Shown: positions 8,880 to 8,916 of the stretch, in pieces
Position numbering within the stretch: position 1 is the first letter of the stretch
How the letters are laid out: each line of letters starts with the position of its first letter
Virus record (IMG/VR): IMGVR_UViG_2877291059_000001
From: a virus
Taxonomy: Duplodnaviria > Heunggongvirae > Uroviricota > Caudoviricetes
Strand: one strand, 5' to 3'
Length of the DNA stretch: 12,759 nt
The notes under the pieces: generated by a model
Told to the model about the DNA's origin: nothing
The model's input: the letters and a program-made list of their open reading frames with translations, nothing else
Databases searched by the model: none
Program-made: the position numbers and the translations under genes

Positions 8880-8916
8880 AGCCATCAGTAGTTAACTGGT
8901 GGCTTTGTTATTGTTG
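8880..8916 (+). terminator. Terminator-like hairpin followed by a U-rich tract
   Basis: AGCCATCAG-TAGTTAA-CTGGTGGCT (9-bp stem with one G-U pair) followed by TTGTTATTGTTG, about 25 bp before the RBS that precedes the IS2 insertion point. Confidence 0.3.

Follow-up and report, generated by a model that had tools for sequence, protein, structure and literature searches.

The stretch of DNA analysed here, hereafter the window, comprises 12,759 nucleotides (nt) of a virus of the Caudoviricetes (IMG/VR record IMGVR_UViG_2877291059_000001) and represents the late region of a lambdoid prophage. It carries, in order, a DUF968 gene, a RusA gene, the gene of the late antiterminator Q (3330-4151, plus strand; Pfam PF03589, E = 4.5e-54; homologue annotated as antitermination protein Q), which marks the start of the late operon, tRNA-Met (4295) and tRNA-Arg (4469) genes, long insertion sequence (IS) debris, an open reading frame (ORF) with a DUF1737 domain, a 53-aa ORF, a terminator-like hairpin at 8877-8907 (plus strand), a copy of IS2, the gene of a 71-aa S21-type pinholin, and a truncated DUF1327 gene interrupted by an IS3-family element. 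The subject of the present analysis is the hairpin, located between the remains of an accessory gene and the first gene of the lysis cassette.

Both small ORFs preceding the hairpin derive from nanS-p, which encodes the NanS-p/YjhS sialate O-acetylesterase, a protein of 631 aa in its full-length form. The DUF1737 ORF (8434-8676, plus strand; Pfam PF08410, E = 4e-17) corresponds to residues 1-87 of NanS-p/YjhS from Shiga toxin (Stx) 2 phage 86 (BLASTP, E = 2e-22), and the 53-aa ORF (8634-8795, plus strand) to the C-terminal residues 586-631 (BLASTP, 91% identity, E = 5e-26). Only the DUF1737 domain and the last 46 codons are retained, the catalytic SASA part (about 500 codons) having been deleted. 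The same deletion derivative occurs in several sequenced phages, e.g., ON470612, and is therefore older than this locus. The stop codon of the remnant (8795) is separated from the hairpin by 81 nt. In phage 86 the same hairpin is located 75-80 nt 3' of the end of full-length nanS-p, other alleles lie 10-15 nt 3' of the upstream stop codon, and no annotated coding sequence overlaps the hairpin in homologues. Since both ORFs are what is left of the N- and C-terminal ends of NanS-p, the hairpin is best described as the nanS-p 3' terminator; an earlier note on this DNA, based on the sequence alone, had proposed the end of an upstream small-gene transcript, a proposal that can now be sharpened, given that the small ORFs are NanS-p remnants and that the hairpin also follows the stop codon of the full-length gene in phages.

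On the other side, the end of the stem (8907) lies 25 nt before GGGAG (8933-8937), the Shine-Dalgarno (SD)-like sequence of the holin, in agreement with the distance of about 25 bp given previously. The 1460-bp IS2 copy (8943-10402, plus strand; features annotated as IS2 family transposase) is inserted between the holin SD and the start codon, and is flanked by the target-site duplication ACGGG (left copy 8938-8942, right copy 10403-10407). The pre-IS2 sequence on which the earlier note had relied is supported by this duplication and by uninterrupted homologues, which match the reconstruction exactly (...GGGAGACGGGGTATGGACCAGATG); these relatives, Escherichia phage vB_EcoS-640R1 (ON470612) and Stx2 phage 86, read ...CTTCCGGATAACGGGAGACGGGGTATGxACCAGATG. 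The holin (10410-10625, plus strand) is a class II holin (pinholin) of 71 aa with the dual-start motif Met1/Met4 (MDQM...), and its homologues carry the labels class II holin or lysis protein S. Because IS2 lies exactly between GGGAG and the first ATG, the native translation initiation region of the holin has been lost.

The hairpin at 8877-8907 ranked first among the 17 terminator-like sites identified in the window by a consensus scan (13 pairs, 6 G-C pairs, 5-nt loop, tail TTATTGTTGT), the total count being unremarkable compared with shuffled sequences (12.6 ± 4.4). Within the sequence at 8878-8917 of the plus strand (AGAGCCATCAGTAGTTAACTGGTGGCTTTGTTATTGTTGT, read from 8400-10800), a core stem of 9 bp with one U.G pair is formed between 8881-8889 (GCCATCAGT) and 8895-8903 (ACTGGTGGC), as described in the earlier note; the loop has 5 nt (AGTTA, 8890-8894), not the 7 nt reported there. 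The U-rich tail noted previously was recognised at 8904-8917 (TTTGTTATTGTTGT), and its first bases allow the stem to be extended to 13 bp through pairing of CAGA (8877-8880) with TTTG (8904-8907). Folding of 8870-8925 (plus strand) with RNAfold yielded a free energy of -19.8 kcal/mol, compared with -9.05 ± 2.49 in dinucleotide shuffles (n = 200; z = -4.32), and two of the 200 shuffles folded as well as the native sequence; the energy is thus not weak, a weak value being what would have spoken against the earlier note. A longer fold of 147 nt placed an extended long-range helix around the hairpin, which was disregarded as it is not conserved in other alleles. The features expected of an intrinsic terminator are present both in the structure, with a GC-containing stem (about 5-14 bp) and a short loop (3-8 nt), and in the location, which is intergenic, on the sense strand and 3' of a stop codon. 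The tail of the window (UUUGUUAUUGUUGU) contains U at 10 of its 14 positions, with a longest consecutive run of three. Relatives with the same allele present TTTTTT(T)ATTGTTGT 3' of the stem, i.e., 6-7 consecutive U, and a T-to-G change at 8907, private to the window, results in TTTGTT and reduces the proximal run from 6-7 to 3.

The 264-nt junction reconstructed without IS2 found matches in 2,440 of 5,426 complete Escherichia coli genomes, extending over at least 80% of its length in 1,906 of them; several O157:H7 genomes harboured multiple copies, and the best match among the complete genomes reached 98.9%, with none higher. Some matches were partial (E. coli hits H71-H78) and started at query position 126/127, which is the 5' edge of the hairpin, at 149, inside it, or at 159, shortly past it; a recombination or mosaic boundary between upstream cargo and lysis cassette thus falls at the hairpin.

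To compare alleles, 154 loci encoding S21-family holins were fetched and their upstream sequences extracted. Where the holin was at least 90% identical to that of the window, at least six sequence-different hairpin alleles shared one position, 34-46 nt ahead of the first ATG. In addition to the allele of the window (GCCATCAGT/ACTGGTGGC), these included the one shared by 933W and Sakai Sp5 (GGCCATCAGT/ACTGCTGGCC), the one of H-19B and E2348/69 PP2 (CCGTCAGTG/CACTGGCGG), and GGACCATCGG/CCGGTGGTC, GGGTCATCAG/CTGGTGGCCC and GGGGCTGTCGG/..CTGATGCCCC. In every allele the hairpin was the dominant local fold, and in five of the six allele classes at least four U residues directly followed the stem. 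In a 25-sequence alignment, 95.3% of the cells of the 11-pair helix were paired, compared with 44-65% when the partners were slid; four of the 11 pairs showed changes on both sides (17 cells), and the observed covariation score was reached by none of 500 column shuffles. Such pairing agreement across unrelated stems would be hard to explain without selection. Of the 275 helix cells counted in homologues, about 70 are G.U pairs, which on the other strand would become A.C mismatches; as they work only in plus-strand RNA, the sense strand is favoured. A covariance model built from the alignment matched only directly 5' of holin genes, in sense, and only at 8871-8943 in the window. What the analysis shows is the structure, strand, position and conservation with compensatory changes, and it is mainly conservation and covariation that set the hairpin apart from chance. 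The terminator-like hairpin previously noticed at this place is therefore real, being intergenic, in sense, composed of a strong stem and a U-rich tail and, in thousands of prophages, conserved with compensatory changes; the comparison of homologous holin upstream regions disclosed none of the loss of conservation that would have refuted it.

The comparison was extended to 104 unique S21-family upstream regions from Enterobacteriaceae, including Enterobacter, Kosakonia, Phytobacter and Klebsiella. A sense terminator-like hairpin followed by a T run occurred within 200 nt of the holin in 71 of them, vs 20 of 104 in antisense, and these hairpins formed clusters at 34-53 nt and at 105-127 nt ahead of the ATG. 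Since the sequences involved are unrelated, a terminator placed just before the holin leader emerges as a recurrent design. This recurrence of unrelated GC hairpins and T runs at the same position in distant holin loci agrees more with a generic terminator than with a dedicated regulatory fold and speaks against an alternative explanation, according to which the hairpin is no terminator, and is instead an element of the holin mRNA leader, with an SD-sequestering hairpin, that sets translation, start-codon ratio or mRNA stability. Stem-loops that sequester the SD are reportedly found in the leaders of dual-start holins, namely 'sdi' of lambda S and its counterpart in phage 21 S, as is said to have been established by Blasi and Young and, in 1999, by Barenboim and colleagues. 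The hairpin at 8877-8907 is not of the 'sdi' type, as it includes neither the SD nor the holin start codon in its stem, and a canonical U run follows it in most alleles. A structure that does contain the SD is found 14 nt downstream, separate from the terminator: a second small hairpin at 8921-8937 (plus strand; CUUCCG-GAUAA-CGGGAG, 8921-8926 paired with 8932-8937), whose 3' arm holds GGGAG ahead of the Met1/Met4 dual start and whose stem is essentially invariant (99% paired, helix 2 of the alignment). The conservation of this neighbour, together with the homology that the alleles share from at or near the 8877-8907 hairpin through TTGTTGTGAGCTTCCGG...ATG, which indicates co-inheritance with the holin leader, and with additional covarying leader structures in sister clades, is what would be expected of a leader element. 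RNAfold on 35 homologous leaders predicted no conserved long-range pairing between the hairpin and the SD region, and the leader explanation appears quite improbable overall.

The sister-clade leaders mentioned above belong to S21-family loci of Enterobacter, Klebsiella, Citrobacter, Phytobacter and Kosakonia (L019-L021, L026, L034, L040-L043, L066-L078; region about 30-125 nt before the holin ATG, which is locus position 1501). They display first a terminator near -110, then a long-range stem (CAGGCTCCGGGA...CCCGAGAGCCTG) with compensatory changes in 10 of 15 predicted pairs, and next a covarying SD-sequestering hairpin.

The spacer between esterase and holin genes is also known as the site of PasA and PasC, two Hfq-dependent small RNAs (sRNAs) (Zhu, Shabalina and Storz 2026). 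The order sialate esterase, pasA/pasC, holin corresponds to the neighbourhood of the hairpin, which might accordingly have belonged to these antisense sRNA genes or served them as a bidirectional terminator. Tests of strand and homology effectively refute this explanation: PasA and PasC are encoded by the other strand (Pearl Mizrahi et al. 2021, Table S6); no significant match to either sequence, as retrieved from E2348/69 by the published coordinates, occurred in the window (up to 3 mismatches; blastn-short); and E2348/69 itself possesses PasA plus a separate sense hairpin before the holin. A bidirectional or antisense terminator was also rejected on structural grounds, as the minus-strand fold of the region is weaker (-12.6 kcal/mol with RNAfold) and is followed by CUCUGAUAACUA in place of a U tract. 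In Sakai, EcOnc52, at the end of the Sp4 esterase gene, and EcOnc35, which lies upstream of Sp4's inverted holin, are antisense to the adjacent late gene, at PasC/PasA-like positions, and EcOnc51/52 were named as PasA homologues by the source paper. In E2348/69 PP2 (L003 2366-2410) and PP5 (L004 1331-1375), the esterase stop codon is directly followed by an A-run/GCCAGCG...CGCTGGC/T-run palindrome within a longer spacer, and the PP5 palindrome read on the minus strand is the PasC terminator. The spacer of the window bears only a degenerate trace of this palindrome (AAAAAGTGAGCCAGTC...), which suggests that the short spacer is a deletion derivative from which the sRNA gene was lost.

That the spacer is an sRNA hot spot, with PasA/PasC and the EcOnc RNAs, is also relevant to a sense RNA. 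The hairpin might form the 3' end of an Hfq-binding sRNA, or a 3' hairpin with a stabilising function, originating in the 3' untranslated region (UTR) of nanS-p, in which case its role would concern a regulatory or stable RNA and not insulation. Hfq usually binds a module of this kind, a stem with a U tail, as stated in the literature for all Pas sRNAs, and StxS provides an example of a functional sRNA originating from a late-region terminator (PMC7547250); retention of the hairpin in alleles with a weaker U tract would fit as well. Nevertheless, no Rfam family matched the hairpin region: when Rfam 15 was searched with the whole window at gathering thresholds and with 8600-9000 at E values up to 10, only the two tRNAs passed, and the best local matches were at chance level (E about 3). 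Furthermore, the 81-nt spacer holds no promoter-like site, and among window-type alleles the polymorphisms beyond those in the loop and in the length of the U tract are situated in the upstream spacer, which speaks against a conserved seed. Table S2 of Tree et al. lists no Hfq peak at the holin-proximal hairpins of Sp5 or Sp3, a weak negative given that the table excluded near-ORF peaks. On balance, a role as sRNA or stabilising 3' end is considered unlikely.

The last alternative concerns tR', the terminator at which the short pR' transcript stops; it is overridden by Q and ends StxS in Stx phages (PMC7547250). If the hairpin were tR', it would be the terminator primarily overridden by Q to turn on the late genes, and in prophages devoid of accessory genes between Q and S the holin-nearest terminator does appear to be tR'; at locus L017, AACCCGCCGTCGAGCGGGTT and a T run, nearly identical to the post-Q element of the window, stand 124 nt before the holin. 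A tR' is expected no more than a few hundred nt past pR'/qut, right after Q. The hairpin at 8877 is found 4.7 kb downstream of Q, which ends at 4151, past two tRNA genes and the nanS-p remnant, and this identity is very improbable. A separate pR'/tR'-like pair adjoins Q at 4157-4258, consisting of a putative pR' (4157-4185, plus strand; TTGATT, 17-nt spacer, TAGATT) and a tR'-like terminator (4232-4258, plus strand; AACCCGC-CGCCGA-GCAGGTT + T6). The Q-to-tRNA spacer of the related phage ON470612 is 98% identical to this stretch, and the 933W record likewise places pR', qut and terminators next to Q. The Q-sensitive terminator envisaged in the earlier note therefore stands only in part: the hairpin lies inside the late operon, where read-through by Q-modified polymerase would be expected by analogy, but it is not the switch, the tR'-like pair being 4.6 kb upstream. 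ON470612 presents a perfect stem (GCGGG) and TAAATT as the -10 element, vs GCAGG, with a C.A mismatch, and TAGATT in the window, whose tR'-like hairpin is no longer the minimum-energy structure when folded. These changes, together with the T-to-G substitution in the U tract of the 8877-8907 hairpin, suggest mutational decay of the regulatory signals.

Taken together, the hairpin is best interpreted as an intrinsic (Rho-independent) terminator on the late-gene strand, which would stop Q-independent transcription before the lysis cassette and be read through by Q-modified polymerase; we assign this interpretation a probability of roughly 0.7. The hairpin would mark where the accessory nanS-p gene ends on its 3' side and would delimit the S21-type lysis cassette on the 5' side. 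In the lysogen, RNA polymerase starting from Q-independent promoters downstream of tR' would transcribe the GC-rich hairpin, pause on the U tract and be released, leaving the lethal holin untranscribed. Candidate promoters of this type are those of tRNAs and of accessory genes ('morons') and, in this window, also those of IS elements. Following induction, polymerase that Q has modified at pR' would become terminator-resistant and continue into S-R-Rz, a read-through that is expected from lambda-family biology. Published observations on related phages document sources of such Q-independent transcription. In Plunkett's 933W record, pR' and two possible terminators have pT, a putative tRNA promoter, downstream of them, and a primary start site was mapped between tR' and stx2 (Sy et al. 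2020, PMC7547250). The 3' end of the esterase mRNA was among the PasA partners in uninduced enteropathogenic E. coli (EPEC) analysed by ligating and sequencing interacting RNAs (RIL-seq) (PMC8550237 supplement), and the literature describes basal nanS-p expression that rises by 1-2.4 logs on induction. By definition, a moron is an accessory gene that has a promoter and a terminator of its own (Juhala et al. 2000, summarised in PMC3594210 and PMC8065619); the terminator has its counterpart in the hairpin that follows full-length nanS-p in phage 86 and its remnants here. Literature searches returned no description of this particular terminator, and the GenBank records of 933W and H-19B contain other late-region terminators or none, that of 933W showing no feature before S.

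Several points weigh against this interpretation. Termination itself would follow from established lambda and moron biology, by analogy, and the covariation controls are imperfect, the alleles being related and the structure derived from the same sequences. In one class of alleles (GGGGC/GGGGG) the proximal U tract is poor (UCUUGUUG or ACUUGUUG); as the hairpin is maintained where terminator quality is lower, there is room for another RNA-level role. In the window, the tail (UUUG...) is weaker than in all relatives seen, the consensus scan identified no consensus-like promoter just upstream of the hairpin, including the 81-nt spacer, and the native region upstream has been replaced by IS1 fragments.

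These fragments stop 4 nt 5' of the DUF1737 start codon. In this locus the hairpin is probably vestigial, a relic, because of its weakened U tract, the internal deletion of nanS-p, the IS1 debris that abuts the remnant and the IS2 copy ahead of the holin; it could still stop transcription coming from the upstream IS debris. The practical significance of the element in such a decayed, IS-riddled prophage is small.

The mobile elements themselves display an unusual organisation. IS1-derived fragments occur in both orientations at 1-940, 5385-6160 and 7445-8430, one ORF matching the IS1 InsA C-terminal domain, and include perfect short tandem duplications of 45 nt (201-245/246-290) and 181 nt (8052-8232/8250-8430). 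Natural IS copies do not usually show such a pattern, which may stem from assembly artefacts or from extreme rearrangement. IS2 carries exact internal direct duplications (9024-9133/9178-9287, 9692-9742/9957-10007, 9754-9841/10008-10095, 9889-9956/10096-10163) by which its transposase frames are broken, and looks like a scrambled or misassembled copy rather than a normal one; in the closest hit to a genome with the same insertion, DETEC-E223, IS2 lies within the DUF1327 gene and not before the holin. A 472-nt, 100% complementary inverted repeat (6578-7049 and 10934-11405), originating from an IS3-family (rve) transposase gene, flanks the segment with the hairpin, IS2 and the holin. Tandem duplications of 40 nt and 68 nt beside the repeat mirror each other (6597-6676 vs 11306-11385; 10793-10928 vs 7362-7438), and the segment thus flanked could be invertible, composite or an artefact.

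The element is most likely an ordinary terminator, a routine member of a well-understood class with a textbook mechanism. It is mildly interesting for its allelic covariation at a fixed position and for its location at the 5' boundary of the S21 lysis module, where the hairpin can serve annotators as a landmark for S21-type lysis cassettes. A more ambitious proposal, which we regard as unlikely, is that of a conserved 'lysis guard', co-inherited with the S21 holin leader, with a strength tuned by allele and U tract and a product that is possibly a sense Hfq-binding 3'-UTR sRNA. If so, the tuning would set the Q-independent leak into the holin and, with it, spontaneous lysis, toxin release and prophage retention, and the sRNA would complement the antisense PasA/PasC RNAs of the same spacer. 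If the interpretation as an intrinsic terminator is right, then in roughly a third of sequenced E. coli genomes, Stx phages included, the hairpin is all that finally separates a lethal pinholin from prophage cargo under constitutive transcription (tRNAs, esterase, toxin-region RNAs). Differences in strength among alleles could affect how often lysis occurs spontaneously and toxin is released, and could account for the tolerance of defective prophages whose lysis genes are intact.

Compared with known systems, the hairpin resembles the tR' of the lambda family as an intrinsic terminator of the late transcription unit to which polymerase modified by Q should not respond; it differs in not standing beside pR'/qut and in having no sequence similarity to the tR'-like element at 4232-4258. 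PasA/PasC (EcOnc51/52; PMC8550237; bioRxiv 10.64898/2026.05.13.724894) have the intergenic neighbourhood and the terminal stem-loop with U tract in common with it, whereas they are encoded on the opposite strand, have no sequence homology to it and are absent from the shorter spacer of the window. The SD-sequestering leaders of dual-start holins resemble the locus in having RNA structure near the start codons, a description that fits the neighbouring hairpin at 8921-8937, which contains the SD, and not the hairpin at 8877-8907. A likeness is also found with moron terminators, where a GC-rich stem-loop with a U tract also directly follows an accessory gene in a lambdoid late operon, in sense orientation and at a mosaic boundary; the window departs from them in its internally deleted accessory gene and weakened U tract, and any promoter of nanS-p itself is putative. 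Further counterparts are the hairpins of 933W/Sp5 and H-19B/E2348/69 PP2, which have the same position, strand and stem-loop-plus-U-run architecture, with stems that differ in sequence from that of the window through compensatory substitutions. In the H-19B/E2348 allele the downstream leader differs and the covariance-model score is only about 13 bits, while alleles of the 933W/Sp5 type share the downstream leader sequence with the window as well.
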